DNA of 56,542 nt, filler included, from Platydemus manokwari (Eukaryota): assembly GCA_037951405.1 (NCBI GenBank). It is 6 parts of 6 records of this genome, joined end to end, with 100 filler letters (N's around TTAATTAATTAA, not from the genome) between each part and the next. Parts side by side here need not be neighbours in the genome. Positions count along the whole stretch, not along the records: positions 9,367 to 19,048 come from JBBMOY011218544.1; 5 more parts are not named here. One strand, written 5' to 3'. The position numbers were made by a program, and so were the translations under genes. Below are positions 174-46,608 of this stretch, piece by piece. The number at the start of each line of letters is the position of its first letter. Position 1 is the first letter of the stretch. Under the pieces are notes generated by a model. The model searched no databases, was not told the DNA's origin, and saw only the letters and a list, made by a program, of their open reading frames with translations.

Positions 174-3140
174 ATGAAAATAACACCAAATGACGACCAT
201 TTAGTGACAATTTCTGATGATTGTGTCGTGATGATTTGGCGAGTACAGGATAAAGAAGGAAGATCGGTGAAAAGAGATAAAGACATAGGTTGGGCTGAAG
301 AAATTCTCATCACAAAATCTGATCTGGAAGAGAAGGTAAAATCAAAGAAAAAAATGTAGAGATTAACAAAATTAATTGTACTCTTTTTTAGAATTCAACA
401 ATGGCTGAATTGAGAACGAGGGTGGATGAATTGAAAATGGAAAATGAATATCAGTTACGATTGAAAGATATGAATTACAATGAGAAAATCAAAGAGCTCA
501 CAGAGAAGTTCATTCAGGAAATGGAATCGTTGAAAACCAAGAACCAAGTGTTGAAAACTGAAAAAGATAAGGAAGAAGCTAAACACGAAGAGAAACTCCA
601 TGAGATGATGGAAAAACATAGTAAAGAACTTCAAGACATCGAGTCAGCCAATAATCAAAAGTTGATGTTGGAATACGAGAAATATCAAGAATTACAAGCT
701 AAATCCCAACGTATGCAAGAGGACTACGAAAGGCAATTACAAGAGTTGGAATCACAGAAAGAGCAAGCATTGGAAGAATTAACTGAATACTATGAAACGA
801 AACAAGCGGAAAAGTCGACAATTTTAGACAATCTCAACAAGGATATCAGGGATCAGACGATGGAATATGAAGAAACAAAGCGATTGATTGAAGAAGATGC
901 CGATCGGGAAATATTGGACACGAAAATAAAATACGAGCGACGTCTTCGTGAAGAGCGAGAAAGTAATGCCCGATTAAAAGGAGAAACTGGAATTATGAAA
1001 AAGAAATTTGCCAGCCTTCAAAAGGAGATCGATGATCAAAAAGAAGAAATCAAGAAATTCCAAGCAGAAACTCAAAAACTGGAGAATGTAATTCGAAATT
1101 TAGAAAAGGATAAAATTGGCCTGAAGAAGGAAATACAGGAAAGAGATGAAACAATTCAGGATAAGGTTGGTGTTGCCTTGACTACATGATACCATTGATA
1201 TTTCTATTTTTATTAGGAAAAGCGAATATACGATCTGAAAAAGAAGAACCAAGAGCTGGATAAATTCAAATTCGTTTTGGATTATAAAATCAAAGAACTT
1301 AAGAAGCAAATCGAACCGAGGGAACATGAAATATCAAGTGCAAAAGAACAAATTCAAGAGGTTAATATCAGTGAAGGTTTTTGACAATTTTTAACTAATG
1401 TTTTCACAGATGGAATCTGAGCTTGAGAGATTCCACAAGCAGAACAATCAGCTGGCCTTGAACATTGATGAATTAAAACAAAAACTCAAATCCACTGAAA
1501 AAGAATTGAAATCAGAACGACAAGCCACACGAGATGTGGAAGCACAAGTCAGGCGATTCAAAACCGACCTGTACAATTGCGTTAGCTATATCCAGGATCC
1601 GAAAGGTTTAAAGGAGAGCATCGTAGCTCTGTATAAAAAACACATCCAAGAAGACGTGGTAAAATATTGATTTCTATTGATAATATTAACTGGTCTATTA
1701 TTTGTGATTTAAAATTGTTATCTAGGCGGTGCGACAAAATCAGGTTATATGATTATCATTGAAGTTACATTGATTTGTTGTTCTAGTTTTTTAGTTTGTA
1801 ACTCGAAATGTTTGAAATTATTGATTGATAATCCATTATTTTGTTATCCCTTTTGCTAGTTTAGCTTATCAACGATGATTGGAGTGTTCTGCATGCTTGT
1901 ATCCATGACAACCTTTTTTTCTGACCCACTTAGTTAAAAAAGTCATTCTTAGAAGAGTTATGTTTCCGTTTCTTAGATTTTTTTGTTTATATTTATGGTT
2001 TTTTCTTTTATATCTAAATTCTTTCGCAATAAAAATGAGATATTATTGTGAAAATTCCCGCAAATTGTTTTTTTAATTTCTATATACGCCAAGTGTATTT
2101 ACGAGGTTATGAGTATTTCCTTTTCAATTCTTTACCAATTACAGCAGATATTCCACCGGTTTAGTGGTCTCTTCTTTTCATGAATACCTATCAGGACCTC
2201 AAATCCACATTCAAATCATGTAACATTAGACTATGGACACAAGTGCATTTTGGTTTCATCTCAGCATTTCTCTCACTGTTTGTCTTGCTAAGTGAATCCG
2301 TTTAGCTACTGGGGCGAATTAGTCAACTTCCGTGTAATTGTATTGTCCGTATCTTCCTCGTCATCCTAAATATCTACAATAAAATCAGAAACAAAAAATA
2401 TTTACAATATCAAATTAGAGTTTGTCGTTTCTAAATTTGTGGTCAACTCCTTTCCCATTACTTACAAACCTAATTTGTTAGCCAATTTATTTTTGTATCT
2501 TTTAATTTAACATGGATTCAAAATAAAAAATATGATTGCAGACAATATGAATATGGTAGTTAACGGTCCTATTTAGACTAGTGAAGCATCGGTCGATGCT
2601 GATATACAGAAAGAATTTACTCGACAAAGAGAACACCTTGAACGATCTGTGGCGTCGTTGAGAAAGAAGTTGACAAAGGATTCTGAAATCCATCGTGCAG
2701 ATTATGTTCGAATAATGCAAGTATGAAAAAATGATTTATCTCCTCGTTAATTTTATTAAACCTTTCTCTGCCAGGAAAATGTTTCCTTGATTAAAGAGAT
2801 AAACGATCTTCGGAAAGAGTTGAAGAACTGCCGCACACACATTCATGATTTAGAAGCTGCACTTGGATTGCATAGAAAACAAGGTGATGTCGCTAGACAA
2901 TTGGTTGCAACAATTACGTCGAATAAGCCTCAACCACTGGTGGAGAAGGAATTAGAGGAAGCTGGCCGAGTGATGGAAATGCAACGAGCTCTCATAGGGC
3001 AACTGAGAGATAAAATTGTCAACATGGAGGCCGGACGGATTATCTATCAGAGCAATGAAAATAACGAAAATGAGGTTGTTCCAAGAACTAGTCTCAGTGC
3101 CAATGAGCGATTGCCGCCTATTGATGGTGGATTGCAATGA
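174..3140 (+). CDS. CFAP57: Cilia- and flagella-associated protein 57 (WDR65), 3' part; 5' exons lie outside the window
   Basis: Spliced exons with GT-AG ends: 174-335, 392-1165, 1217-1360, 1410-1658, 2577-2720, 2775-3140 (TGA). The translation gives the last WD40 repeat ([14 protein letters not shown]), then [89 protein letters not shown] and [17 protein letters not shown], which match the CFAP57 coiled-coil tail as recalled. Confidence 0.93.
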
Positions 3141-3193
3141 AAATGATTCTACAAACAATGTAGGGTGCGTTGTAAACTAGAATTAGATTACAG

Positions 3194-3199
3194 AATAAA
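3194..3199 (+). terminator. Candidate polyadenylation signal AATAAA for CFAP57
   Basis: AATAAA ~55 nt after the stop, followed by a T-rich tract. The motif is common by chance in AT-rich DNA. Confidence 0.4.
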
Positions 3200-5557
3200 T
3201 TATCTTTGTTTTTTTGGTTGATACTCATTTTATTTGCTTTATTTTCATCAAAAATATGTTCATTTATTTTGCCGTAACCGTTTATTTTGTAGATATTCTA
3301 ATATAATATGATAAAGAAAATAACCGCTACACCAGGTTTGCATATTAATATGGGCAACTGTTACCATAGAAAGGCAAGCTACAAAATTCATTCTGCATTC
3401 TTTTCATTTATTAGATTTGAGAGAACTGTGAAGTACTTTTTCAAAAATGAAATAACTGCAAAAAAATTATTAAAAATTATCGCATATTCGAAGTTTTTCA
3501 ATTTACCAGGAGTCAAGCATTGTTAAAATCTTGCTGCGGAGCTATGTGTTGAAAATGAAACAATTAAACTCTAAATCTCAACATTTCTCTCATTTTAGAC
3601 TCACTTTAAACTCTCATCATACAGATTGGACGAAAACACAAAAAATTGTTTCAACCAATCACAAATTAGAGAAACATTTCATTACATAATTACTCACCAA
3701 GATAAATACGGGTCACCGAAATTGAGAAATATGTTGCAATGAAAATATGTGCACCCCTCCTTTACTCACAAAGGTCTACAGAGCCATACTTGCACAGTTT
3801 GTGTCGGAGCCTACAAATTCTGAACCAATGATAAAACTATAATTTCCGGAATAGATATGATGTAATGGTTTCGATTTGAACTCAAACATGGGTTATATTT
3901 TAGCACGGAAAGTGAATTAACATCTCCACAAGTATCATTCATTTTTTTAATCAATACAATACAAACGATAAACCTTAGATGACATCACAGGCTTATTCAT
4001 GATATCATATGGGAAAATATTTGGTAAAATAAGCATTTTATTTTCAAAATAATATGGTTACTAACAATTACTATTTTCTATTTTGAGTGACCCACAGAAT
4101 TTTATAAGTTTGATGTGAATGTTCACGAATTTGACTTGATAGAAATCACATAGCAACATTTTGATCAAATCCGTTGTCATTAGATTTTATTCTAAGCGCG
4201 TAATTGTATGACATACTCTAAGACAATATTATATTATTTTAGTCTTATCAACATAAATGGGTAGATATTTATTTCATTGAATGCAACATTATCTATAGGC
4301 AGCATAAATGTTAACAATATTATAACATTAATTGTTCTCATAATATTAGTTGCTAGGGTAACTGTGGTAATATTGTTTATATGCCTCTCCTAATATAATA
4401 TGCTATCGATGCAGTCCACCAGACTAGCAAGAAAAAAATCATTGAACATTGACCATTGGTTGTTAGTTTGTTTGCCTTGTAATGCTTGATTGAATTTTTG
4501 GAGCTTGGTAAAAATTTTCAAGATTTTGTTCCTGGTAGCCAATCAGAGCATGAAATTGAAGAATCCTATGATTATGGTAAATATTTAAATGATATTTGTA
4601 AATTATGATTTTTCTCTCTTTTTATCGGCGAGATTTTTTAGATGTTTTAAAATATTTTATTCAAAAATATTTAGAACAATCATCGTAGCACGGGATTTTG
4701 AAATATGTTATTTCAACATTCTAAAAACGAACATCTCACCGTGTTGATCGAAAATTTCTCAATATTCATGATTCGAACCCTTCAGTATATAGACCAGTAT
4801 ATAGATTTTTGGTGAACAATCGGACCTCAACAAAATTTTAATTATTACATCAATCACCATAAAATATTTTAACTGTATACGGTTGTCACATCTAACGATG
4901 TGATACTACATCTCCAAGCAGCTCTTGAAATTAAATTACATTCATTTGTTCAGTTGATAGTAGCATGTTGCTTGATTGGCAAAACAAAATTCATATTATT
5001 TATTGAAATATTTGGTGCAACATGCATTGAAAATGAGAAAGATTCGGAATAATTAAACGTGCAATATGAATTAATTAACATTACAGCGCTGGTAAATTTA
5101 AGCTTCGTTGGAAGCGACCACTGAAAACTAACATCACAAACCCTCAGCGTGTCATCAGGATTCATAGTGTGTATGTGTACATTGTCACACCGGATACGTG
5201 TGTCCAATCTCACACACACACGCATTTAACAAATTGAATCACCCAATCACAAACGTTTATGATTCATTATTATTTAAATATCGATCTTATGACAGGATCG
5301 ATAAATTTGGTTTCAACTATGTGAGTTCACTTTCAAGCGAATATTTTTACAATTTATGAGAAAGTGTAAAACAAGTCTTATTTTTATTGCTTAGTTTGCT
5401 TGCGCCCATGAAGATTTATCGAATTAGCTCGCTTGCATGGCGATCATTCTATGTTTCTGTTTGAAATTTATCATTTTTCAACTTATAACTTTGCTGCTTC
5501 AGTCTTTGATTGTTGGCTAAGTGTTCAATTATGTCTTGATTGCAGTCCAAATCAGAA

Positions 5558-7435
5558 ATGAACCACAATTCCAGCGATCAGCTCATTGAAATCGATGAGT
5601 GCTCTATCGATGATGAACGAGATTTCGTACGGAAACACAGTTTCAATCAGAAAACCCAGGCATTCATGTTTATGTGCTTTTATCGATTATTATTGATGTG
5701 AAAATTTCAGAAGATTTTATCCAACTTATCGAAATTCGGTCAATCAATCGTTCAATCAACGACTCGCCAAAAGAAAACAGAACTGAAAAAAGAGAAGCGA
5801 CCAACATCAATGTATGTCATGAATCATTCTAAAGATCCACTTAATCTCGACCAATACATGCATGATTCCACCTTATTAATGGCTCTAAGAGAAACAGAAA
5901 ACAAAGTGAATTTTTATCTATTTATTTAGCATGATGTTCATGGTATCATTTATTCACATCATACCAGGAATATGTTGATATGGAACTAAAATGTTATCAC
6001 AATATATGATCACAGCTTAGTGATGAGTGATAAGGAAGTTGAGAAATAGATTCTTGAGTTTGAATTCATCAGTGGAGCGAATTATGATACTCGATGTTCC
6101 ATCAACTGAGCTAGAGTCCTAAAGCTACGAAACCAGTCTGTCGATGTAATTCTATTTGAGATTAACAAAGGTTCATTGTCAGAAAGTCATCAGAACCCTT
6201 GCATTATTGATTTTTTTTATTACTCATTACTCTTAATCAAAAATCTGGTACTTTTATTTTACTAACTAAACCAGCTGATGAAAACTTGTCCAATTTTAAT
6301 TTCAACTCTATTTTGGTCCAAATAAATATATAGTTGATAACAATTAATTGATTTGATGGTCCTGAATAAGATGATATCAATATCTAATAAATATTAAGAA
6401 TACAAACAAATAAAGAATCAAGACAACTCCAAAAATGCCTTACATCAAAATTAAATAAACTAAACCTCAACCTTGATCTCTTGATTATTCATAAAATTAT
6501 CCTGATGTGCACGTTGGTTACCAATAAATAAACGGCATTAAAAAATAATAGTAGAGCACTATTATTTTATGACTGTGATGTAAGATTTAATGTTCAATCG
6601 TACCCTAGTGACCTCCATGAGCTGAATTTTGAATATTATAATCTAACCTTTATTCTTTCAGGATCCCATACATAATGATTATTGTTCCTAGAATCAAGGT
6701 GGAATATAAAAGACAAGAGATTCAGTTTTACAAACCGTATTTTGGATTTATTTTTTCCACGCACGCGGTTTTCGCGTAAAAATCTTGATTTTCTTCTATT
6801 TTCAGTTGCTTGAGTCAGAGACTGCTCGATCGAGAATGGAATCCAAAATCGAAGTATTGGAGAAAGAAGTGTCTTCACTACAAAATGAGAACGATCAATA
6901 TTTGAGCAGAGAGCGAAATATGCTACATCAAATTCAGGATTTAGATAGGAAATACCAATCGAAAGTTGCAGAAGTATAAAGAATTCAACAATTTTTTGAT
7001 TTGAATTTCATGGTTTGATAAGGCTCAAGAATACTCTTTGAATGCCAGAATTAAGGAGATGGAATTATTGTCGGAAATCGCAACGATGACTCAGAAGCTG
7101 ACGAGTATTGATACGGAGAGGCAGGAAAGAAAAATACAAAAAATCATGGATTGTCAGAGTCGAATAATGGAACAAACATTACCTTATACAGCATCCGTAG
7201 AGAATATCTATGATAACGAAGACGGTCTTTTCAATGCAGGTCTTTTTGGTGAGGTAAATTAAGTGAGGTGGTAATAGAAGTTGGATTTATAATTTAGATT
7301 TTGAAAGAGCATTCCCAAAGTCTAGAACAAGTAGACATGTTTAGGAAGTTGTCATCTCCAAAGATTGAAGATGAAGAAAATTATCAAAATTTGCTTCTTA
7401 CAGATTCAGTAATCAAATCTTCCGATGCAGATTGA
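5558..7435 (+). CDS. Coiled-coil protein of ~270-280 aa, weakly similar to the EVI5/RabGAP C-terminal coiled coil; no TBC domain seen
   Basis: Phase-0 exons join into one frame: 5558-5659 (GC donor; alternative GT donor after 5626), 5711-5905, 6806-6973, 7023-7253, 7298-7435 (TGA). Heptad-rich segment LRETENKLLESETARSRMESKIEVLEKEVSSLQNE..QEYSLNARIKEMELLSEIATMTQKLTSIDTERQE. The gene structure is well supported; the EVI5 likeness is tentative. Confidence 0.7.
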
Positions 7436-9193
7436 ATTTTTCCAGATATTTTTATCCATTGTAATCCAATGATTTTTTACTTTTGTTGACTTCATAATCT
7501 TGTGATAACTCAAGAATCTATTTATTTATTTATTATACATTTCCATAACATAATATTGGCCATGGTTTATTTGATAACATATTTTAGTTGTAAATTCAAT
7601 CCATTTCATATCCTTGATACAACGATAAATACCGGATTGGAATAGTATCCGGTGATTTTACGATAAATTTTCTGATCTTTATGAATGTATTTCTATCTTA
7701 TACAAATGCAAACCATGAAAATTGCGATATAGAAGTGCATAAATACTTGATGTTGTCAATTTCTGATTTGGAAGTGATTAATTCAAAAGTTCAGTTAACC
7801 TGCCTTTTAGTCTATAATTTTATTATGGATATCAACTATTAGATAGCCATAAATAATAAACTTATGTTAGATGAAAATGTCATATTCACCATTGACAATT
7901 GACGCGGTGTTTTAAAACGAAGCATTGATATTATAGATTATATCAGAAATATTATCCTGATAAATCTTCCTCTAATAAATTGGTCAGTATCTTTCTCATA
8001 TTTTTTTATCGTCTTAAGTGACTACTTATTTTAAATTACATCATTTTTTCATCCATAATATTAAAACGATACTTTCATATCTTGCTCCTTGCTATTTTAT
8101 TCGATCTTCTAATATGTTTAAATTTTTATCTTAACCAATGTCTCAAGATTTCAAATATTGAAAATACTAAAAATGTAAATAATAATTATAATAATTGTTA
8201 TTATTAGTAGTATTATTATTATTACGAATAAGACAAAACGACTTGAAATTAGGACCAAAACGTGCGAATTAAGCCTTTAAAAGGTATACTGCTTGACACG
8301 CAACACACATTGCCTTGCCTGATTGGACTTCGGCTTTCAATCGAGATATGTCAACAGGAAATAATGAACTATCAGATGGGCCAGCGACAGTGGAAAATGA
8401 ACACAAACTTGCAAACGAAACAGGATTTGGAAATCTTGAACAAATAAAAGACATTGATTGCTATACATAAATTTAACACTAAATAACGATTGAGATCTTG
8501 ACAGATATTGATAGTCTTTTATGGTTGGTATAGTTGAGACTAATCCTATTGTGGTAATTATGACTTTGGTTTATTGTGTATGGCTTTGTATTGAGTTACA
8601 TTTTAATAATCTGGTAATAAAACCAAATAAACACAAGATCCAGCCAGATAATATTTTAATACTTATTGTTACCACTTCTGGTAGAACTTCAGTAGAAATA
8701 TTTTTCTTATGGATATTTTCATATAAAACCGTTTTCGTATCGATGCGATTTACTAACATCAATCTCTAAATTTTGCTAGTTTAGTTAAAATAAAGGCGTG
8801 TCTTGTTTAATGTTTTGTTTATTTCTCTTAATTAAACTTGAATGTATTTTGAAATGTCGATGGAATGTAAGTCAATATCAGAGTATCTTCTCGAGCAGCT
8901 GTAAGAATATTTCACTCTCAATCATCTAATTGTTATTGGTTGTCATTAACGGATTCTCTTTTTGGCAGTATTGGATTTATTGAATACTCTTCATTATGCT
9001 GTCAGTTGACAATTCAATTCTAATGGTGATTAGAATTTTGATTTCATTTTTATAGCGAAAAATTTTTACGCATTAACCTGAATATCCATATATAATATTT
9101 AATTGGATTGTCATTTCTGAAATAGAACGTTTCTTATATAATAACAATTAATTCAATTCATTCGAAATATGGCAGATATTAATATTATTATCA

Positions 9194-9199
9194 ATAATA

Positions 9200-9266
<67 letters not shown>
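9194..9266 (+). repeat. (AAT)n microsatellite at contig end
   Basis: A run of aat repeats with one phase slip near 9203 leads into the N spacer. Confidence 0.95.
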
Positions 9267-9366
9267 NNNNNNNNNNNNNNNNNNNNNNNNNNNNNNNNNN
9301 NNNNNNNNNNTTAATTAATTAANNNNNNNNNNNNNNNNNNNNNNNNNNNNNNNNNNNNNNNNNNNN
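9267..9366. other. Artificial contig-joining spacer N44-TTAATTAATTAA-N44
   Basis: Exactly 100 bp; the central 12-mer is palindromic and gives stops in all six frames. Occurs five times in the window. Confidence 0.97.
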
Positions 9367-9543
9367 TTTAATAGTAATTGATTTATAAACATCTATTATT
9401 CCTTCTACTCTAGAAGTACTTGGTTGTTCTCTATTATTAATATAATATACTCTTTCAGCATGAGCTTTAGATTTCTCATGACCTTTCAGTCCTTGTATAT
9501 TCTTAAACATCTTCTCGCAAAATTGACAAAATTTATGTGCCAT
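9367..9543 (-). CDS. N-terminus of a C2H2 zinc-finger protein, truncated by the contig end; possibly Polinton-encoded
   Basis: ATG at 9543 in a TAAAAATG context. MAHKFCQFCEKMFKNIQGLKGHEKSKAH fits C-x2-C-x12-H-x5-H. The frame stays open into the gap. Confidence 0.6.
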
Positions 9544-9588
9544 TTTTATGCAGACTTTTTTTATGAAGACCTTTAATTATTGAATTGA

Positions 9589-9861
9589 AGTAGTATGTAT
9601 GGTCAGTGTTTGACGCCGGTTAAAGATTTTCCCAATTGCTAAATAGCGCAAATCGGGGGTTTTTCATTAGATTGAAAAAATTATCAAATTGCAAAATTAC
9701 GGGTTTTTAATTTGTTTGATTATCTATTTGTAAATTGCTAAATTAAGCCCCCGTATAGTATACTAGAGTAATAGTTTTTTCAATTGCGAAATGCATGAAT
9801 CATGAATCATATGTGATTCATTTCAGCCCCCCGGCGTCAAACACTGACCAAACATACTACT
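9589..9861. mobile_element. 273-bp element bounded by 31-bp inverted repeats starting AGTAGT (Polinton/Maverick-like terminus or MITE)
   Basis: 9589-9619 AGTAGTATGTATGGTCAGTGTTTGACGCCGG versus the reverse complement of 9831-9861, AGTAGTATGTTTGGTCAGTGTTTGACGCCGG: 30/31 identical. Four internal AATTGCNAAAT motifs. No clean TSD (flanks aattga / ggtgaa). Confidence 0.75.
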
Positions 9862-10639
9862 GGTGAAAAATTAACAGTTACGAAATAAAATTGTAGTTGA
9901 GAATTCAACCAAAAACTAATGGAGACTGATTAAGGCAACTGTGATCCTAGATGTGAATTCATCCAACAATATATAAATTAAGATAACCAAAAAACCTGAC
10001 CGTAATAAATGGATATAAGATAAATAATAAAATCAATAAACAACTATTAAATAAATAAGTAGAATATTAAATAAAAAGTTAAAATAGAAACAATTATAAT
10101 AAAATATTGAAACGAAAAATGCTATACAGTTTATGAACAAACAAAAGCAGGTAGTAAACTAACAAAGCTAGAAAATTGCAATGTATTCTATGAAAAAACA
10201 TTTAAAATAGAGACATGACAATCGATAACATCGATAAAAATGGTATATAAGGTTAGTGCAGTTCTTAGCATTCATCCACTTAAATCTTAAAACTACTTGG
10301 AAGCAGTGACCTTAAGAAGAAAATTTTTTTTTTACACTGGAAGAAAATGTAAAGTTTTTAAACTATGAAGCTTAACGGGCTTTTGAAAGAGTGAAAAACC
10401 AACTTTTAATACCAGTTATATATAGAACTTTATCAATAATTCATAACATTAGAGGCTTCATTTGATTTTCTAATATCCTTCGTGTGGATATTTAGCATCA
10501 ACCTACTAAACTAGTGCTTCTCGCTTTGCAAACCTTTGTTGTTCTTCTGTATCTCGTTAAATTATCTGGTTTCTTAAATAGGTCTCACGAATATAAATTG
10601 TGGTTATTATTAATCTTTACTCCAAGCAAATAATAATAT

Positions 10640-10886
10640 TAAAATTTATTGACTGTTGTGTACATAGAGTACCAAAACAATTTGTTGAAGCTGGATAAAG
10701 AATCATTGTGTCAACAGTTAACCCATTTAAATTCTTTAGTAAAAATTCACATAAATTTGTTGGAGTTTCGGCCAAAAGACATTTTGAAATGTGCAAACAA
10801 CCATCTATAAATGTTGATGAAAATTTATCTTTCTTTGATTCTATGATTAAGTCCAATTTTCTTGTTTTGTAGCAACGTATGGTCAT
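10640..10886 (-). pseudogene. Possible protein kinase fragment (subdomain V-VIa-like)
   Basis: HISKCLLAETPTNLCEFLLKNLNGLTVDTMILY followed, after a frameshift, by LQQIVLVLYVH. Loosely resembles the CLVFE..NLYEFLKKN..GL..I..QI..AL.YLH pattern of CMGC kinases. Confidence 0.3.
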
Positions 10887-12282
10887 AATATTTTAATTAA
10901 CTCTCATATTTATCAATGCACTTCTTTCTAGTTGTGTTAATAATAAATAAAATGTTTGACAATAATACCAATAATAATAATGATAATAATATCAATAATA
11001 ATATAATAATTATTATTTTAAAAATTAGTATCCTATATTTTTTTATTTGGCTTGACAACAAAATAACCCTTCAATAAAATATTCCAATGAAATAGCATTA
11101 AATAAAATCATTTGTTAAGAATAACGATGGTGAAATTAATTCTATTGATCCCCCTATATGAGAATAAAGCCGCCGAATAATAAATTAAATAATTCAAATG
11201 AATTGAAACAATATGCCTGCATTAATATGGAAATTTTAATCAACTAAAGAACAGCATAAATAGGCTAACAACGATTAGTTTCCCGAACCATATGTTACAA
11301 TAAACTGTCCTTAATTTGGAAACCACTACTGAAGTAAGTTATCCAAAGTCCGTGAATCGAATTGTGTAAGTTATCAAATCAGCCAAACTCCTCAAACATC
11401 TTCGACAATTAAATGCCCAGCAAATAACTTCGAAATCATTTCAATATTGCTATAGCTCTTGAAGGCTACGAGAGATCGTCCTATATATCTCTGTACCGAG
11501 ATACTGATGAGGCCTATGGAAAGCCGAAATAGGACTAATTTTTAAACAAAAGGTAATTTATTTATTATATCTTGATCACTTAACAATGTTATTAACCATT
11601 AGCTTTTCCAGAAGTTGTAGTCAATCTCCTGTCGTTCAAGTGTATAAAAGCATTCGTAAATTTCATATTAAGTGTATAACTATATTTTAGTAGCAATAAA
11701 ACTGTATTTAAAACAAAAAGTCACTTCAATAATGAAGTTGGCAAGTGCCATAAGGTAACATCTCATGTACAATAAATTCATAACATTAAGTATCAAATTA
11801 TTACCTTTTGATAAGGCTCGATCGATGCAATTAGGAATAAAAAGTCTTCATCGCCTAATCGAGTTTATTGAGGTGAAAAAACATCGTATTATTATGTTCG
11901 TGATTACCTGTGGATCATTAGAGCTCCAGAGTACGGATTAGAATCAGACATTGTGAAATTGTGCCAATAATAATTGTAATAACAAACGTCAAAAAAACAA
12001 AGACCCAAAATAAGCTGCAAATTTATCAGTAAAGCCAACTTGGTATGTGTAACTGGTGAATTATTTTTAACTTATTTTACTGGCATAAAAAGATACTTAG
12101 ATTCATTCCAAAAGGGTTGATATGGTAAAATAAAAAAATGTCAGAATATTTACCAGCTACATATCGGAACCATAAAAATTTTATAAAAATGATTATGTGG
12201 AAAGGAAAAATTGTAAATATAAGAATAAGATCTGGTTAACCAAATAAAACGGTGAATGTTTTCTTAAAATCTTGTTTAGTTA

Positions 12283-13314: not shown

Positions 13315-16300
13315 ATTTAATGACAAAAATGTTCAAGCATAAAATTACGGTGTGTGAAGCATGCACGACATATATCAAATATTTAGAAGATATATTTGAT
13401 ACTTCCAAACCACCGGTGAGTTTAAATTGAAAAAACCCAATGATATCTATGTTAAAGTGTATCTTGTTTTATACAGCAAGTAGTAATAAAAACGATATCA
13501 GATGCATGTGATATCTTTGTACCGGACGTTAAGAAATCATGTCACCAATATTATAACGGTATTGGCGGTTTGATAATTAAAGCAATCTTGAAAAAGGAAG
13601 ATCCTAAAAAGATATGCATTGCATTGGGATATTGTAATCGTGTGAATTCTGATTTGGGTTAGATTTAATAGTTGTATGATAATTTCCAGTTATAATTATA
13701 TTTATTGTCTTTTGTAATCATGTTTCATTATCGCTTATAATTGTATTGTTTTCTGGTATAATTTACTCTGGAAAATCTATTATTTTCTGATCATTTGATT
13801 TGCTAAATAATGTTTATAACTCACACTGATTATAATATTACTATGCTTGATATGAATAATATTTAAAATGAATTGAAATTATTTATTTTATTATTAAATA
13901 TTTTTATATTTATAAACGAACTATTGTTCAATTATTATTATTATAAATTATCCATGATAGATTTATCATATAAACATCGATAAATGTTGTGTAAGTCACT
14001 ATTGTTTTGATAAAATACGTATTGAAAACTCACGGCATCAAATTATATTTGTATTACAATTATTCCAACAAATTGATATCTTATAAAAATCCGATTTTAA
14101 AATTGTTTTAATTTCAGTTCATTATTAATTCTCTTATATCTCGCTGCCCTTTAAAATCTGTGATTCCCACTTAATTCTTAAATATCTCGGTTTCCAACCT
14201 CATAGATATTTATCTATTTGAAAGATTCTATTTTATTTATATAATCTCTATATCTTTTTTATATCTTATTTACATATTCTCCATATTTTCTTTATAATTT
14301 ATCTATATCTTCTTTTCATATTTAAGTGTTCTACTCTATATCTTTAATAAAACTTCACTACATCTGCTTTATATCTCTTCTATCCTTCAATGGCATTTAC
14401 TTTACACCCTACTATTTAATAAAGCACAGATTGTAAACAAACTGAAAAATCACAACACTAAATTATATTTTAATTAAATTTTTTTTGGGAAAATCTGATT
14501 TGAAAATTTTCCTAATTTCAATTCATTATAAAATCCCACATGTTTATTTTCTTTTTCTATGCTTTATTTTAAAAAAATCAAGAATAAAATTTGGAAAACA
14601 ATTGGAATGAGTGAATTCGTGATTGATAAAAATCGATAATTGGTGTATTTTTCAAATTTAGTTATTCCATGGGTCAGTGTATCGAAACCAGAGAAAGACC
14701 AATGTTGTGTTTGTAAACATATTGTAGCACGTATTGAAAAGGTCATTGACAAATCTGTAGCACCCGTATGATGTTGTTATTTATTCTCGTCGTTATTTTA
14801 ACGATATTTTTACAGGCTGCTTTTCAGAAAAAAGTTCTTGATATTTGTGAAATATATAATAATCCAATCAAAGATCAATGTATCTCATTCTATAAAGGAG
14901 TAGGTTTCGATGTGATTAAAGCAATTCTTGCATCGAAAGACCCCAAAGAAGTCTGTCAAATTGTAAAGCTGTGTAAGGAAATGAATGTTAACAAGGCTCA
15001 TCTGGAGTTTTTAGGTTGGTAATACATTTTATTTGATCATTCCAATATTGATTATATGGAACACTGTTATTTACGCTTGTTAACGATCAACATATTCGAT
15101 CTGTTTCCGTTATTTACACAAATTCCAATGTCTTGGTTTTCATTATATCGATTTAGAGAGTTGGTTTGATTTGTACTTTTCTATTAATAACACAAAATAT
15201 GAAAAAATCTTTCTTCAATCAGGATAAAAATATATCAAATTTTGAAAATTTTATGTAAGGAAATATCTTGTAGGTGATTAAGGAAATTATTATTGTAAGG
15301 GTGTTTTGAAACCAGCAATTTTGAAGGAAGAAATGTTAATCAGCTCATTTGTTTTAATAATTTATCTAGCCTTATAAATCATAACAATTATTTGCTATAT
15401 TAAACGAACATGAAAAACCTTCACCCACGGTTTGTTTATTGAGAAAATATATTATAACTATAACATGGAAAATGTTAAAATACCAAATCGAAACTAAAGC
15501 TAAATATTTTTAAAAGATTTCATTGAAATATCGGATGATTTTTCAAAAGATGAGCAAAAATTTTTAGAAAATTTTTATATTTTATCGATCACTAATGGCA
15601 ACAAAAATGAATCAATTTATTGTGCTACTAATAACTGTGAGCCATGTGAAAATTCAAAAATACTCTTAAAATATTGTAATGGGAGATTTTGTTCAAATAC
15701 GAAACAGTTCATGCATAATGATTGTACAACAATAATCATCACAAAGGTATAATGCTACCGAGAATTCTGGATCAAAAGGAAGCCTGTTCTATTCTAATAT
15801 ACAATTTACGGTTGAGATGTAGCAATAACAGATCTTTAGATCATCATGTTATGCAATTTTACTGTTCGAACCAATGAATATCCCAGCCTTCTGATTGATT
15901 TCTTTATCATATACTTTCAATATTATATTTTATAAGTTTACAACTGATGTACATAATATGTGCGTTATAGTTATACATGTTTTATTGATGAGGAATATTT
16001 TTAGACAAATTAATCGATGTTATTGAAGAAGGTAAAAGAAGTGGTTGCAAGAAATGCGTTGTGAGTGTTGAATGGTTTGAAAAGAATATAAACACTTCAA
16101 AAACAGCTGTAAATATTATGATAATATATTAATTTACAATGAAATATAATTAATAATTGGAACAGATTGATGTTCAGAAAAGATTTCTCTCCTATTGTGA
16201 AGTGTACACTGATCGAATAAAGGTTTATTGTAAATTTTTCTATTACACCAGTGGATATGAGGCAATCAAAGATGTTTTACATAAGAAATGTCCATTCAAG

Positions 16301-18529: not shown

Positions 18530-19048
18530 GTAAGTGGAGAATGATTTGAAAAATAACCAATCGAAAATTGCCGTACACTTTATTATTTATGTTGTGGCTT
18601 TTAAAATATTCTGTCAAATATTTATTATTATTATTGTTTGAATAACTGATCAATTATTTTGTTGTAATCAATTTATCTAAGATCTGTATATCAAAATTGA
18701 ATTACTCAAAAATTGGTCTTGTATTGATTTTCCCACGTTTAAAGGAAACCTCTGTAATATTGTGAGAATATGAAAATTGGATTACATTTTCGAAGATTTA
18801 ATTTAATATAGAATTTAATTTAGTATTAAATTAAATTAATTTGTTTAATTAATTGTGTTTAAATATAATTTAGTGTCGTGCCTTTTCAGTTCGTTTACAA
18901 TGCGTGCTTTATAAAATAGTAGCAGTTAACAAATATATTAATATTATTTATTTATATGTAATTTTTTGAGCTATATTGTCAATCAAAATGATAATCAATA
19001 ATTATTTTTCTATTTTATATGATTATTAAATATTTTATTAAATATTAT

Positions 19049-19148
19049 NNNNNNNNNNNNNNNNNNNNNNNNNNNNNNNNNNNNNNNNNNNNTTAATTAA
19101 TTAANNNNNNNNNNNNNNNNNNNNNNNNNNNNNNNNNNNNNNNNNNNN
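19049..19148. other. Artificial contig-joining spacer
   Basis: N44-TTAATTAATTAA-N44. Confidence 0.97.
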
Positions 19149-27169: not shown

Positions 27170-28510
27170 TTTTCAATGTGGTAGTCTCTATCTACAAAGA
27201 TTCTGTCTTAGAAATGTGTAGGATGTCAAATACCTAAATACTGAAAAATGAAACATCACATCGGAAGAAAACAATGTCTCAAGCTTAGACACACGTTCTG
27301 AGAAAGATTGTAATATGTTGGACAAAGAAGATTGGAAAGAAATTAATCCAAGAAACTCTAGGGGCAATCAATTCAATTTGTTTGAGAAAAGCTATGCACA
27401 GTTTGTGTATAGTCAAGGAGCTAAACGAAGCCGAATGTTGGCGAAAATAGTTAAGAAAATAACGAATCACAGACCAGAAAAGGCAAAAAATAAACCAATA
27501 GTATATTGTAAAGTTGAAGATGAGAAAGTGAAGGTACTGTTAGACACGGGAGCTGAGCTTAATGTAATTAGCAAAGATTAAGTTATTACCTAATGAAGAG
27601 ATGATCAAAATAAAGAGACCTCCTTACAGATTTAGATTTGCAAATAGATCAATGATAAGACCTTTAAAGCAGGTTAATTTAAGAGTTATAATTGGCGCAG
27701 AGGAATAGTTTCAATATTTTGGTGTAATGCCAAAAATATTCCCAGAATGTTTCATTGGAATATGTGATTTGAAAGTAAATGAATTTCCGTCGTACTGACT
27801 AAGGATTACATTAAGATAAAAGGAATTGAGACACCTTTTGTTTCTCAAACCCAGATAAAATCTTTAAACAGTTAAAGGTCGCGTTTGCGGTGAGAATACG
27901 ACAGAAGTAGAAAAATATTCAGAATAATAAAAGAGTAATATTAGCGAATGATATGATGTTAGGAGATAGTGAATACTTTGTAAAAGCTATGTTTGTTGAC
28001 GGATATAGCAGAAAAATGGATAGATTTTTGGAGTATGTGTTTGTGGCAGATAAGAAAAACATAGTGAAGAAGGATTTGATTATAACCGATTCGTTGCTTA
28101 AGCAAATAACTGATATTTTTGATAAGGTTAAGGCAAATTGAGAATGGCATTAAAAATTTTTTACTGTAATAAATGCAGGTTGGATAGAAAGGATTTAGGA
28201 AATAAACGAAGACTGCCTTGGAAATTCAATTGGGTTGTATGATTTATGTTCCGAAAAGAGAGACACTAAACTAGATTAAATACTAAAAAAAACATTGAAC
28301 AGAACTTATATGATAAACTGAATCCTGAGAATATGAATAATCTTCTAAGGGTTCTGTTGAAATACAGAAATAGTTATAGTACAGGTCCAGAGGACTTAGG
28401 AAAATGCGAGATCGAGAAACATAGTATAAAAAGAAATATTGATCACCCAATAGCTGTCAAACCTCGTAGAATTCCATTGGGATTAGAAGAAGAAGTTAAA
28501 CATCTAATAG
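27170..28510 (+). mobile_element. Degenerate Ty3/Gypsy LTR retrotransposon gag-pol fragment
   Basis: Retroviral aspartic protease motif VKVLLDTGAELNVIS (~27527-27572), and the pre-RT region DLGKCEIEKHSIKRNIDHPIAVKPRRIPLGLEEEV (~28393-28500). Many stops and frameshifts; cut by the contig end. Confidence 0.85.
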
Positions 28511-28610
28511 NNNNNNNNNNNNNNNNNNNNNNNNNNNNNNNNNNNNNNNNNNNNTTAATTAATTAANNNNNNNNNNNNNNNNNNNNNNNNNNNNNNNNNN
28601 NNNNNNNNNN
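28511..28610. other. Artificial contig-joining spacer
   Basis: N44-TTAATTAATTAA-N44. Confidence 0.97.
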
Positions 28611-30617: not shown

Positions 30618-32455
30618 CACTAAAAGCATTTTTTGCTATGGAATATTTATATCCTCAATTGAATGTGTTAAAAATTCCTGTATGAGGATTGTTTATAATG
30701 ACATCTTTCATAAAATGTGATATTGTTGCTCATTACTTATTTATTTATGGTAGAAATTAATAATTTTCTTCAATATTATTCAACAACAATTATGTCAGTG
30801 TGAAGAAAACATATTTCAGTTTGTCGGAACTCAAAAATAGTATTGATATTTTCTCAAATTGAACACATCACCAACAGAAGTTATTATATTTAATAAGTTG
30901 GAAGATGTCAAGATAAGGTTTACAGCCAATAGAATTATACACAATTGTTCATATGTATTTTGATGTTTTTGGAAAATGTAAATAAATGATCTTGTTTCAA
31001 AAGAATATGCAGCAAGCTTTGGAAACAAGCTGATAGATCACATTGGAAATTGAACGCCGTGTAGTGTCTGCAAGTATTTGACCAAAAAGACATGAAATAT
31101 TATAAATTTAATTATAACAATGGAAAGAAAGTAGTCTTATAATTTTGTGCTTTAAATCTGAAGGGTATTAATTTGGTATGATCAACACAGACTTGTGCAT
31201 CATAATGTTTTTTACTATTATATTTATACCAAATATTGTAAAGCTCTATTTTTCAACATTTGAGAGAACTGTGGCCTCAGACAGTTCATCATATGAATAT
31301 GATATTGAAGATCTAAGCTAAATAGATTAGGTCATACATGAAACAATTCTAATAGTTCAGACTAAATTATTTAGTTTACGACTTAAGCCTTCCGAAAAAA
31401 GAATTACGATTGAAATGGAAAAAAGACTTTATAATAGTGTATATAACTTTATATCACAGGCTATTCATTTATTTTGTCACTAAATAGAGTCAATTTATTG
31501 CAGAGATATCAGTGAACCTTCAAATATCTTTAATAACCAGGAATACAAACCTCAAGAATTTTACCTCTTTATCGATAATTGAAAGGGTATTATAAAATGT
31601 ATATTAATGCTTAACATGAATTATTTTATCCGAAATCTGAAAGAATCATGTTAAGATACATACATATACATACATACACATGAAAGATATTACATATCAC
31701 CATAAATGGGGCATCTACATAGACTTGAAAATTATGAATTTTCTCTTGGAACAACAATCTGGGTATGCAAAATACCCCTCTTTTGCATGTAAAATTGTAA
31801 ATATTGAGTGAAGAAAGCCTGGGCACCATCAGAAAGCTTGGTTTCACGCTGTCAATATTTTTGAAGAGACAAAGTAAGATTGAAGATTGCAGCAAAGTTT
31901 GATACAGCAGTTTTTGCTAAAATATTCAATTGACCTAAATAAAAAATATTTACTGGTCATTGCTATTATTAATTTATCGAAGTGTAATTGTCAACTATTT
32001 ATAGATTTCTACAGAAATCTTTAATTCTTATGTCATAAAGGACTGAAGAATTTTTGAAATGCAATTATATCGTAAATAGAATAAGATAGACTCAGTTAAT
32101 ATATTAATAAAAAGAATTAAAACTTTTGATATATTAAATGAAATATGATGATAATCGAAATAAACGAAAATTTTTGATTACGTAACCACCAGTTAAAGAT
32201 GTAATCAATCAGTAAGGTCTAGTCATAACAATTGTTATAATTTATAACAATGTATTTTTAAAGTATTGATTATGAGAAACACTATTTCAATAATTTTGTG
32301 ACACATTTGATAAGATCAATTTGATTTACCCAAAATTGTTAATGGTAAAAATTCAATTTTTTTTACTGATAACATATTGTCTAATTTTTAAGTTAAGAAT
32401 TTTGTTTAAATCTTAACTTCAGTTATCGTGGTGTAATCAAAATATTATTACAGTG
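30618..32455 (+). mobile_element. Highly decayed Chapaev3-type (CMC superfamily) DNA transposon
   Basis: Collinear transposase motifs: KEYAASFGNKLIDHIGN*TPCSVC (~31000-31070), LVYDLSLPKK (~31371), IYCRDIS..EYKPQEFYLFID (~31492-31576), ITYHHKWGIYIDLKIMNFLLEQQSGYAKYP (~31689-31778), *VKKAW (~31805). Candidate termini CACT (30618) and CAGTG (ending 32455) are less certain. Confidence 0.7.
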
Positions 32456-33625
32456 TTTTAAAGGTTGATTTGTAACCTTTATTTAGATTTTACTAAGCTG
32501 ACTATTGTGTTGAATCTCAATTCAAAATACTTGTTTATTTAGTACTGACCTTCAACGATTATGCTTTGTATTATTTAATATGATAGAATAATTTAGCCAT
32601 CTTCATACAGTTGAAAGGTCATTTCGTTCTTGTAAATCGATATTGCATAATTAAACAATCGGCATGAATATTTTAGAAAATCTTTTCCTACACTTTTGAT
32701 TTTATTAATTAATACTGTATAGATCCAGTTGAATTTCAATCTAAGGCACTATATATATGTATATATCGAAAAAATAGTAACAATAAATAATCATGAAAAA
32801 ATCCGACGTAAAATAATTGAAAATGCCTCATTTAGTAAATGAAATGTTTTCTATATCTGAAGATAAATTATTTAAATTTCTATTTATAGTTTATGTTTTT
32901 CTTAAAGATTAAAATTTAAATAAAATCTTTCATTAAATAATGGCTGTTTGACCGAAAATAGCAAACAAATACTTTGATGTTTACTTTAAAGTTGGCCATG
33001 TTTAATTTATTATTCGAAATATATGCACTCTAATTTTGATTGATTTTATCAAATGTGTCACAGAATAATTGAAATAAAATTTCTAATAAACAATAGTTAA
33101 CGAATGCATTGTTATAATTACAACAAATCGATTATATAAAATTTAAAATTGAACGAAAGATATAATTTTAACTGACAGATAAAGTGTGGAAGTCGGAACC
33201 GATTATAGGAATGTAATCAGAAATAAATCGAAAATGATTTCATTTGTATTGGTCAGATTAAGCATCCTAAATCAATTGATATATCTAATCGCTGATTAAA
33301 CAGTCATACGACTTGCGAATTATTTCAAATAATGCGATATTATTTCATCAATCTCTCGTCAAAATGATCATTGTAAATACATTTCATTTTCGCATACATG
33401 TCGACAGTTTACACGGCAATCAACACACATCATTCCTTATGACAAAACTTTATTCAGTAAGAAACACAAGCATTTATTCCACGAATTACAACAATTAATT
33501 TAATTGCCGGATCAATGAAGCCAACCAAATTCCAGTGTTTACTTTTCAGATTTATCACATTTAATTGCTAGAAACAAGTCAGAAAATCTAAACATTCTTC
33601 TATTTATGGCCGAAAATATATTGAA

Positions 33626-36600
33626 ATGCCTCTAAAAAAAGATATTTTAAGCTTTATCAAAACCAAAGACTATGACGGATTGGAATATGAATTAAAGAAT
33701 TTAAAAACCAACCAAAAATTTCTTAATGAATCTCTGAAATGGGCATGTTTTCAGGGTGATGCAAAATCGGTGGAAATTCTCATCAAGTTCGGAGCTAATG
33801 CAAATTATTCTGATGAATTCGGTACGACAGTTCTTCATTTTGCTGTCAAGGGTGAAAAAGAAGATGTCATCATTTCTTTGTTGAACTGTGGAGCTGATTT
33901 CCAAGATTGGGAAAATGAAGGAATCAATTTAATGCAATGGTCGATTCGACATGGTTTGGCAGACGTTTTGGATGTCCTTGTGACGAAATTTAACATTGAT
34001 TTGACACAATCCGATGATTTGGGTCGCAGTAATCTTCATTTAGCTTGCATGTTTGGACAAGTGAAAATTGTTCAATATATTCTTGCGACTGGATTGCTCA
34101 GTGTTGATGAAAGAGATGAGAACGGATGGACCCCTCTTCATTATGCCTGTTCGGAAGCTACAACAAGTTTCCGGGAAATGATTCAAGTTCTTTTCAAACA
34201 CAATGCAGATCCAATTTTAATGACAACAAATAATAAAACATCTTTGGATCTGGCCTATGAAGCTGGTCGAGCTCAAGATTTGATCGACGTTTTAACCATT
34301 CATAAAATGCTTCAGCTTTTAATTTCCGTTGACAGTGTTGTAGTGGGCAATTTTCCTGGACGAGAGCCAAATTTGGTGAATCAGAGCAGAACTAGTGAAG
34401 TTGATCATGTTGAGAGACAAATAACCACCAAACATAGAGAATTTCACTCAGCTACGAAATTACAAGAACGCCATGTTACATTGAAATTATCGATATGGAG
34501 AAAGGTTATTTTGAATGATGACATTGAATTGTTGCAAGAATATCGAGATTCCGGAATCTGGTATGATGCTGAGAATCCCTGCAGTTTCGAGGAATGTCAA
34601 GAATTAACTCAACAAAATTTCAGTGAAATCTTTAGAGATTGCTATGAAAATGGAGTTGGACTATTTTCTTATTTCAATGACAATTTTGGAAAACAAATAA
34701 AACGCTCTGATTTTTCCGGAATTCTCATCAATATTAGCCGCATCGGAAAATTCTGCAGTTTAACAACAGAAAATTGTATCTTGTTCAGCAGTTTTCAAGA
34801 ATCGATTCTGTTTTTAGCATATATTACTGGACGATTCAAAGTGGTTGAAATGCTTCTCAAAATGAGACAATTTGATATAATCTCAACATGTCTCATAATT
34901 TGTTTGATAACACATCATTTGGAAAGGAGAAAGAAGTTCCCACTGCAAATTGTCGATAGTCTGCACGCTTTAGCTCATAAATCGGAACTCATTGCTGTTG
35001 ATGTCTTGAACAGGGTTTATTTCAAAGACAATTCTCCAGAAAAACAAGTTACACTCCATTTTTTAAATACACAACTTAGTTCGTATGGAAACAAGAGTCT
35101 TATCGATTTGGCCGATGCTGCAAATTGTTCTAATTTCCTCAGTCTTCCTTGTTGTCAGCTTATTTTAGATAAAAGATGGTATGGGAATTTACGACCGTTG
35201 CGATCTCATTTAAAATGGGTTATACGGTTTTTACCAGTCACGATATTGTTGTACAATCCCTACAACAATAAACCTGTACCTATGTTGAATGGACTGATTA
35301 AAACAAAGTTTGACCAGATAGATGAAGTCAAAATTGTACTCACAGACAAATCAAAGAAAGTAGCACAATTAAATAAAAATGGTTTGCAAGATAACCATGT
35401 TGACTCGTTAAATAGATTCCAAGTACTTTATGCAGTTGTCAATGCACCTGGAACGAAATTCTTTTATCATTCGGTAGCGCATTTTATTTTTCTATTAATA
35501 ATGTCTTACATAATGCTTTTTGATTTTCATATAATTGTTGAATGGGAAGAAATTCTTTGTTATTCATTTGTTTTAGGATATGCTATTGAAGAATCTCGTC
35601 AATGTTTTCTTGTATCCATACAAACATCGATTAAGGATTATATAAACGATAAATGGAATTGGTTAGATATTTCTGCAATTTTGGCAACAGTAATTGGATT
35701 AGTTTTGCGATTGATTACGCAGCACTATGTTGAAGTTAAAAACATTTCTCGATATGAGGAATCCATGAATGATTTGTTCTACATTTCAAGGGTGGCTCTT
35801 CTAACAAGCCTATTATTATTCTATCTTCGGATTCTTTTCATTGCATCTATCTCAGCAATTTTAGGTCCCAAACTAAGAATGATTGGTGATATGCTGCGGA
35901 AAGATTTCCTTCCACTTTTATTATTATTTGTCATTTTTATTCTAGCTTTTGGTGTTTTATTTCAAGGTCTGTTATATCCAAATGGTTGGTATCACAAAAA
36001 CAATAATACTAAATTACTGCCTCCAAAAATGGTATCGAAATATGAAATTGAGATTGTAGGACTTCTTCTTAAACGAGCTATTTATGGAATATTTGAAGCT
36101 GACTTTCCAATAGAAGAAACAAAGTGTGAATCTCAAGATTATTGTGTCCATCCTCTTGGGCGCAATTTAGTTTTAAGTCTTAGCTTAATTATATACATTG
36201 TCATAGTGTATATTATGCTTATGAATCTTCTGATAGCTTTGTTTAGCAACACTGTAGCGCGTATTAATCAGCGGTCCATTGAACATTGGTTGGCCGATAG
36301 ATATAAATTAGTCGAAGAATATAAAGAACGTAGTATATTTCCGCCACCGTTTAATATTTTTGAACGATTTTTCAACATTCTTTTCCATATATTTCGACTT
36401 GTGAAATCACCTTGTTGCAAATACCACTTCTCTTGTTCGTATAAAATAATCAATCAACCAGAGTCAGAAGTGAATACCGTTGTCAAATTTATAATAATAC
36501 AATCCTTTGCATTGAAAACGTGCCGTTACTTGTTGGGTTCAAAAAGTAGCCGAAATATTCTATCATCTGCCAGTTCTTCAGATAAAATGTCTGAACTTGA

Positions 36601-36913
36601 AATGAAAGTATTGAAAGATAAAATCCATAAAGTTGACATGAAACTGGACAAAATTCTTTCCATAATTGGGATGAGTCGACCATTGGATAATTGTAAAGAA
36701 ACCGAAGAGCAACTGTTCCCTCGAGTTAATAATCTCAAATACCAGGAATTCCCAATCAAGCATGAATCAAAACGAAATAGCAGAATGTCTACAGCAAGTA
36801 GTTACAAACATAAAGATATTGATAATTATTCACCTCGAGAAGGCAAGAATCAAGAATGGAATAACGCAATGGATATATTTAAAAGTATTTTAGATGAAGA
36901 TGACCTGAAATAA
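33626..36913 (+). CDS. TRP cation channel with N-terminal ankyrin repeats and a TRPM-type core; single-exon CDS of 1095 aa
   Basis: About 5-6 ankyrin repeats in aa ~30-220 (GTTVLHFAV, GRSNLHLAC, GWTPLHYAC). MHR4/pre-S1-like YGNKSLIDLADAANCSNFLSLPCCQLILDKRWYGNL and NAPGTKFF; six TM helices with DKWNWLD, LGPKLRMIGDM, MNLLIALFSNT; TRPM-style TRP helix W..RY.LV.EY.ER..FPPPF; short C-terminal coiled coil. Confidence 0.95.
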   Translation: MPLKKDILSFIKTKDYDGLEYELKNLKTNQKFLNESLKWACFQGDAKSVEILIKFGANANYSDEFGTTVLHFAVKGEKEDVIISLLNCGADFQDWENEGINLMQWSIRHGLADVLDVLVTKFNIDLTQSDDLGRSNLHLACMFGQVKIVQYILATGLLSVDERDENGWTPLHYACSEATTSFREMIQVLFKHNADPILMTTNNKTSLDLAYEAGRAQDLIDVLTIHKMLQLLISVDSVVVGNFPGREPNLVNQSRTSEVDHVERQITTKHREFHSATKLQERHVTLKLSIWRKVILNDDIELLQEYRDSGIWYDAENPCSFEECQELTQQNFSEIFRDCYENGVGLFSYFNDNFGKQIKRSDFSGILINISRIGKFCSLTTENCILFSSFQESILFLAYITGRFKVVEMLLKMRQFDIISTCLIICLITHHLERRKKFPLQIVDSLHALAHKSELIAVDVLNRVYFKDNSPEKQVTLHFLNTQLSSYGNKSLIDLADAANCSNFLSLPCCQLILDKRWYGNLRPLRSHLKWVIRFLPVTILLYNPYNNKPVPMLNGLIKTKFDQIDEVKIVLTDKSKKVAQLNKNGLQDNHVDSLNRFQVLYAVVNAPGTKFFYHSVAHFIFLLIMSYIMLFDFHIIVEWEEILCYSFVLGYAIEESRQCFLVSIQTSIKDYINDKWNWLDISAILATVIGLVLRLITQHYVEVKNISRYEESMNDLFYISRVALLTSLLLFYLRILFIASISAILGPKLRMIGDMLRKDFLPLLLLFVIFILAFGVLFQGLLYPNGWYHKNNNTKLLPPKMVSKYEIEIVGLLLKRAIYGIFEADFPIEETKCESQDYCVHPLGRNLVLSLSLIIYIVIVYIMLMNLLIALFSNTVARINQRSIEHWLADRYKLVEEYKERSIFPPPFNIFERFFNILFHIFRLVKSPCCKYHFSCSYKIINQPESEVNTVVKFIIIQSFALKTCRYLLGSKSSRNILSSASSSDKMSELEMKVLKDKIHKVDMKLDKILSIIGMSRPLDNCKETEEQLFPRVNNLKYQEFPIKHESKRNSRMSTASSYKHKDIDNYSPREGKNQEWNNAMDIFKSILDEDDLK

Positions 36914-37402: not shown

Positions 37403-37502
37403 NNNNNNNNNNNNNNNNNNNNNNNNNNNNNNNNNNNNNNNNNNNNTTAATTAATTAANNNNNNNNNNNNNNNNNNNNNNNNNNNNNNNNNNNNNNNNNN
37501 NN
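37403..37502. other. Artificial contig-joining spacer
   Basis: N44-TTAATTAATTAA-N44. Confidence 0.97.
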
Positions 37503-46508: not shown

Positions 46509-46608
46509 NNNNNNNNNNNNNNNNNNNNNNNNNNNNNNNNNNNNNNNNNNNNTTAATTAATTAANNNNNNNNNNNNNNNNNNNNNNNNNNNNNNNNNNNN
46601 NNNNNNNN
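46509..46608. other. Artificial contig-joining spacer
   Basis: N44-TTAATTAATTAA-N44. Confidence 0.97.

Follow-up and report, generated by a model that had tools for sequence, protein, structure and literature searches.

A probable Polinton end in the planarian Platydemus manokwari with an internal inverted copy of its terminal 31 bp

Background

Between positions 9367 and 9861 of the Platydemus manokwari DNA analysed here, a short zinc-finger ORF lies next to a pair of inverted repeats. This raises the question of whether the repeats mark the end of a large mobile element or form a small element of their own, and why the end of an element should contain an inverted copy of itself. The preliminary description of the locus offered two alternatives: the true end, at 9861, of a young Polinton-like element whose terminal region can fold into a panhandle, or a minimal non-autonomous element derived from a Polinton. 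The analysis points to a known kind of element with an unusual terminus, and we consider it highly probable that 9367-9861 is the polymerase-side end of a Polinton.

The window (the whole stretch of DNA that was analysed, 56,542 nucleotides including filler, joined from six records of assembly GCA_037951405.1) covers one end of the element only, as the contig ends inside the ORF at a linker. The features discussed below are as follows; X1 and X2 are the two public sequencing runs that contain the stretch, both as contigs, and P0002 is a longer protein matched by the ORF.

9267-9366, no strand: linker of 44 N, 12 bp and 44 N, outside the element (same linker five times in the window)
9367-9543, minus strand: ORF, very likely the start of a pPolB-like gene (open frame, zinc finger and match to P0002)
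9544-9588, minus strand: 45-nt spacer from the internal copy to the start codon, differing among copies (variant contigs)
9589-9619, plus strand: internal inverted copy of the terminal 31 bp, 30/31 (arm pairing; X1 contigs of two variants enter 28 of its 31 letters from the ORF side)
9620-9727, no strand: loop segment A, which varies between copies (X2 contig differences; X1 contig of the window's form)
9728-9830, no strand: loop segment B, kept between copies, with a short local hairpin near 9795-9825 (X2 contig comparison; folding)
9831-9861, minus strand: terminal arm, with the element end at 9861 and (AGT)2 reading inward (arm pairing; X1 depth drop across 9861; motif in PMC8097293)
9862-9867, plus strand: host flank, which would be half of a 6-bp target-site duplication (low depth beyond 9861)

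Results

Inverted repeat and fold at 9589-9861

The two arms (9589-9619 and 9831-9861) are complementary at 30 of 31 positions, with a single mismatch at arm position 11 (9599/9851), and have 211 nt between them. The 273 bp previously said to be enclosed by the repeats is thus a span that counts the arms, and the AGTAGT start attributed to the repeat was found as (AGT)2 reading inward from 9861. There is no other such inverted pair in the window, and none of 20 block shuffles contained an inverted repeat of at least 29/31 within 400 nt. Folding of the 273 nt gave z = -9.8, with 0 of 200 shuffles folding as well, while the inner 211 nt alone folded weakly (z = -2.6) and do not form a significant palindrome, 30 of 300 shuffles scoring as high; the fold is due almost wholly to the arms. 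On the same shuffles, an imperfect palindrome extending over all 273 bp was rejected.

Direct repeats of 2-10 bp flanking 9589-9861 were looked for and are absent, in line with the preliminary description, which had found no target-site duplication (TSD). Such an absence is expected if 9589 is not an end. An Rfam search of 9367-10400 returned one chance-level match (E 0.17), a bacterial promoter scan, whose model is not apt for an animal host, remained at chance level, and the arm pattern had no match in viral_contigs or in 134 loci of relatives.

Linkers and limits of the window

The ORF had been described as reading away into a gap. Its frame is indeed open to 9367. The gap consists of 44 N, a 12-bp spacer and 44 N, and this linker occurs five times, about every 9-10 kb (9267-9366, 19049-19148, 28511-28610, 37403-37502 and 46509-46608), with six pieces, each some 9-10 kb long, making up the window. 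The linker has the look of an artificial join of short contigs, and neighbours across linkers may be unrelated. Sequence to the left of the linker was therefore ruled out as the other flank of the element and probably has no bearing on it. No partner of 9862-9867 that would make a 6-bp duplication was found in 8000-9266. In the window there is neither a second copy of the terminal repeat nor a further pPolB or integrase match.

The zinc-finger ORF as the start of a pPolB gene

On the minus strand, the ORF has its ATG at 9543-9541, a distance of 45 nt from the inner arm; the frame then remains open for 59 codons to 9367. A zf-C2H2_jaz match at residues 5-28 (E 4e-07), together with the position of the ATG, bears out the C2H2 zinc-finger ORF placed 45 nt beyond the left repeat. 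When longer proteins were searched with the ORF, two candidates were scored and one was kept, P0002 (649 aa), the start of which is identical to the ORF at 57 of 59 residues (97%) over the whole ORF. The C2H2 finger is present in P0002, as is a match to Endonuclease_7 that falls slightly short of the curated cut-off (E 7.7e-05).

P0002 matches 6816 cluster representatives at E ≤ 0.001 (best 36%). It also matches 19 proteins that are 1151-1449 aa long, at identities of 25-30%. By pattern, one or more family-B polymerase motifs are present in all 19 of these long relatives and a K..NN..FGK-type motif in 17; PF03175 was passed by four and Endonuclease_7 was matched in 13. P0002 aligns with the N-terminal half of the long relatives and the match is lost after about residue 625. 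Three polymerase motifs sought in P0002 were absent, the palm lying outside both P0002 and the window. To judge from the alignment, this copy is cut or broken after about residue 625, and for that reason it is from homology that we infer a working polymerase in the family.

P0002 keeps C200 and H308, which are invariant in the alignment, plus DxE and HNxSxYD motifs. By analogy with the proteins in PMC11161782, C200 and H308 may be read as a vOTU pair. From homology, P0002 would comprise the finger, a terminal-protein domain, a vOTU protease, an endonuclease VII-like insert and the start of the exonuclease of a pPolB. Its structure model (mean pLDDT 73, pTM 0.40) had as best viral fold match a C2H2-domain protein of Drosophila-associated adintovirus 2 (E 7e-27), and also matched the PolB of a MELD virus (E 6e-20) and PolBs of bidna-like viruses. 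Against the PDB the model had no match at E 0.001, the top ones being weak matches to Y-family polymerases (E about 3e-3). As the closest fold reported for the terminal-protein domain is the Y-family polymerases' little-finger domain (PMC11161782), weak matches of this sort are to be expected from a terminal-protein domain. A search of the PDB by sequence gave weak zinc-finger and HNH matches only, a phage collection searched with a full-length relative gave no match, and P0002 alone found no locus in viral_contigs.

A C2H2-like pattern is present in the first 170 aa of 17 of the 68 long relatives with polymerase motifs, and N-terminal fingers are ordinary among these polymerases. Among the 134 loci gathered for such polymerases, some of which are the same contig, a rve-like integrase match was found in 39 loci of distant relatives (29 of 57 among loci of at least 10 kb). 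The homology of P0002, the motifs of the long relatives and the rve-linked loci together make it very likely that a Polinton pPolB begins with this ORF.

Sequencing depth and the end at 9861

Summed X1 contig depth, which is not a copy number, was 3657-4650 in four bins over 9367-9838 (mean 4276), compared with a median of 67 in eight bins of the flank (9957-10900), the element being about 60-fold higher. At a finer scale, depth fell across 9861 from about 2600-4800 to about 26. The ORF and the repeat behave as one repeated unit which stops at 9861, and the depth step and several sequence variants indicate a multicopy interspersed insertion in host DNA. X1 is possibly the window's own source and is not independent. 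In X2, contigs covered the element and one other short stretch of the window only, at a depth of 2-3. No RNA run containing the stretch was listed, which has no bearing on expression.

From the identity of the ORF with P0002 and the depth step at 9861, this is most likely the true end of a multicopy Polinton rather than a stand-alone mini-element, and we take 9367-9861 as very likely forming one end of such a Polinton (Maverick), integrated in the planarian genome. Of the two alternatives in the preliminary description, the true end of a foldable Polinton at 9861 thus gained support from the pPolB start, the depth drop and (AGT)2. The minimal stand-alone element is not supported for this copy, in which depth is continuous from the repeat to the ORF and a contig from the other run links both; stand-alone copies may exist elsewhere. 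It is plausible that the element is 'young', as had been suggested.

Two further observations concern the flank. An X1 contig of 414 nt matches 9863-10080 after 196 unlike letters and may be an unoccupied insertion site or a further copy of the flank. A second repeat lies at 11373-11726, where X1 summed depth was 350-1860.

The internal copy among family members

The window, two variant contigs from X1 and a contig from X2 all have an arm on the inner side, beside the ORF. The X1 variants run from the ORF side into the arm for 28 letters each, against a bridging bar of 31, while the X2 contig links ORF, arm and loop. With the arm beside the ORF in several contigs, the internal copy is common to several members of the family. 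The two halves of the loop differ in their variability. Comparing the window with the X2 contig, segment A had 16 substitutions and 15 gap letters and segment B one substitution and one missing letter, among the 17 of 18 differences listed for the X2 piece. The window's own form was matched exactly by an X1 contig over 9611-9757 (depth 223).

In the X2 contig, which is 384 nt long and has a depth of 2.9, the plus strand of 9615-9861 is followed by 26 letters and then by 9576-9464 on the minus strand. Segment B, not A, adjoins the ORF in it, making it the flip isomer of the window's arrangement. The evidence is weak, and the contig could represent a flip-flop end or an assembly chimera. Contigs of this type come from a graph of 31-letter words; as the arm is itself 31 bp, a chimera is possible, since a path through the arm could join the wrong sides at low depth if the two arms of that copy are identical.

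Ends of relatives

A motif-anchored scan of the 134 loci of relatives for nested terminal copies gave two, in L085 and L122; that in L122 (span 953) was judged on inspection to be due to chance. L085, a metagenome contig, has a pPolB at 2-2968 and a rve-like ORF at 2973-4067. At 5094-5177, 23 nt from the contig end, is an 84-nt stem-loop with (AGT)2 on both sides (z = -8.6). Neither the polymerase nor the arm pattern of L085 had a match in viral_contigs. Of six distinct contigs with an AGT-type motif at the contig end, one had a nested copy, which indicates that this architecture is not needed by Polintons in general. As far as these sequences go, the nested terminal copy appears to recur without being general among Polintons.

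Discussion

Comparison with known systems

Polintons are well known from animals, planarian families are present in Repbase, parvoviruses and AAV have flip-flop hairpin ends, and adenovirus replication follows the same racket/panhandle scheme as has been modelled for Polintons. The end motif of Polintons/Mavericks is 5'-(AGT)2 or (AG)3, of which (AGT)2 is the commonest in vertebrate Mavericks (PMC8097293). Like the element described here, animal Polintons/Mavericks ('adintoviruses'; PMC8097293, PMC8502044, PMC10748475) have a 5'-(AGT)2 end and are integrated and multicopy. They also share a pPolB with vOTU-like and exonuclease motifs, and relatives of the element adjoin rve integrases. The endonuclease VII-like insert is reminiscent of the HNH insert found in pPolB2, and an assignment to 'group 2 / Beta' was dropped, since Beta is paired with group 1 in PMC8502044. 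Long inverted repeats at the two termini, integrase, capsid, ATPase, protease and a 6-bp duplication are features of Polintons; the element here is known from one end.

The difference lies in the terminus. In the accessible portions of these reports, terminal repeats of animal Polintons (46-1447 bp in vertebrates) are described as pairing only with those of the opposite end, whereas here the terminal 31 bp recur in inverted form within the same end, 211 nt further in. The accessible literature on Polinton termini reports no nested terminal copy or flip-flop end for an animal pPolB Polinton; the terminal-repeat supplements of PMC8097293 and of a 2026 preprint (bioRxiv 10.64898/2026.07.28.741278) may bear on this. 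That preprint describes terminal palindromes and a hairpin-priming model for protist virophages and Polinton-like viruses, the proposal being that the self-complementary extreme end folds up and primes replication in the manner of parvoviruses and poxviruses. The end described here is likewise self-complementary. The protist palindromes, in so far as the preprint's available text describes them, are short (52 nt in one subtype, with a gap limit of 10 nt in the search) and mostly accompany replication genes other than pPolB; here, by contrast, a 31-bp stem carries a 211-nt loop, in an animal, 45 nt from the start of a pPolB.

Two better-known schemes may be set beside this end. In the racket/panhandle model of Polinton replication (PMC4196379) the displaced strand regains a duplex end through inverted repeats, as is proposed here, but in the present case pairing would be local, within one end, and the paired 3' end could also self-prime. 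In parvoviruses/AAV and vaccinia (PMC8956199) the fold-back loop occurs in two orientations; here, one contig, possibly a chimera, has the loop reversed relative to the ORF. Parvoviruses and poxviruses use a Rep nickase or a junction resolvase and no terminal protein, in contrast to the protein-primed polymerase with an endonuclease VII-like insert that is predicted here.

Proposed role of the fold-back and its rivals

Polinton replication is a proposed model, derived from sequence and not from observation (bioRxiv 10.64898/2026.07.28.741278, PMC4196379). In the model for the family, pPolB would copy the excised element by protein-primed strand displacement, priming on its own terminal protein at a short terminal repeat; the single-stranded intermediate would become double-stranded at its end again once the two terminal repeats had paired (PMC4196379, PMC11161782), and the rve integrase would reinsert the product. 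With an internal copy present, the 3' end of the displaced strand is predicted to pair first with that copy, at a distance of 211 nt, rather than with the far end, which lies 15-20 kb off. Such local pairing would give a 31-bp duplex where the second strand starts. Priming by the terminal protein on this local panhandle would leave the orientation of the loop fixed. Alternatively, the paired 3' end might prime itself (snap-back), and resolution would then invert the loop.

If the Polinton end is granted, it is predicted that the fold-back has probably been kept for a role in replication; for both together, a Polinton end and a fold-back so kept, we lean only slightly in favour. One form of this role, an animal Polinton with a flip-flop end whose 211-bp loop inverts in each round, we regard as unlikely; its hairpin would perhaps be resolved by the endonuclease VII-like domain inside the element's own polymerase.

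The most immediate rival accepts the same Polinton end but takes the internal copy to be a neutral relic of one ancestral template switch (copy-back), inherited ever since. Five of the six AGT-type contig ends of relatives lack a nested copy, and segment B matches the arm in its conservation between the window and the X2 contig, which means that conservation is not peculiar to the arm. Accidental annealing is also offered by the 2026 preprint as an alternative for its own palindromes (bioRxiv 10.64898/2026.07.28.741278). A relic fits less well with arms that are 30/31 alike while segment A and the spacer diverge widely between copies, and with the same kind of stem-loop at the end of the distant relative L085. 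We hold such a relic to be a tentative explanation, and on the whole a doubtful one. The alternative that the 273 bp are a separate miniature Polinton-derived element, trans-mobilised and inserted beside a pPolB gene that has lost its own end, draws on the presence of (AGT)2 at both ends of the 273 bp and on summed depth, which reached about 3200-6700 in segment B against about 1400-2300 at 9512-9583. A repeat at both ends of a whole element would, however, also give a roughly twofold excess in depth, and the 273 bp have no target-site duplication. Moreover, there is no loose end at 9589 among the loose ends listed, and the link from arm through spacer to ORF was seen in several variants and in a second run. 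This makes a separate miniature element quite improbable.

That the repeat is instead a MITE belonging to some other DDE superfamily, and the zinc-finger ORF part of an unrelated, spliced host gene next to it, is scarcely credible. A C2H2 finger taken by itself does match generic host families, but the ORF starts an uninterrupted pPolB-like protein of 649 aa and shares the high depth of the repeat, and the repeat lacks flanking duplications of the kind expected for another superfamily. The preliminary description had named termini of another superfamily, or a spliced host gene, as what would overturn a Polinton reading; the identity with P0002 and the shared depth contradict both.

An end with its own inverted copy makes Polinton replication testable from sequence alone. 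Young copies that all have the loop in one orientation would be compatible with local panhandle formation and with a relic alike. If both orientations occurred, this would point towards priming by a hairpin that is then resolved, and a function would suggest itself for the endonuclease domain found in many of these polymerases. A flip-flop end, if true, would combine protein priming and hairpin priming in one element and provide a direct route to whole-element palindromes. If the internal copy is a relic, the locus is simply one more planarian Polinton end.

Other features of the window

Two further inverted pairs were noted. One, at 14409-14480 and 18851-18922 (72 nt, 85% complementary, 4.4 kb apart), possibly represents the ends of an older DNA transposon, and the other, at 32232-32320 and 33039-33126 (89 nt, 83%, about 720 nt apart), is MITE-like. 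A short frame at 27252-27581 on the plus strand has a weak match to a retroviral aspartyl protease at its end (E 0.002) and is likely to be the remnant of an LTR retrotransposon.

Host-type genes are also present in the window. An uninterrupted frame of 1113 codons (33572-36913, plus strand) that codes for ankyrin repeats and an ion-transport domain, and that has a TRPM2-like match of low strength, corresponds to an intronless gene for a TRP-type channel. Exons of SPT16 were found at 53117-54460 (plus strand), on a different piece from the Polinton end. They point to a planarian host: over 53789-54409 the match was 92% identical to SPT16 of Schmidtea mediterranea and at most 63% identical to the other matches listed.
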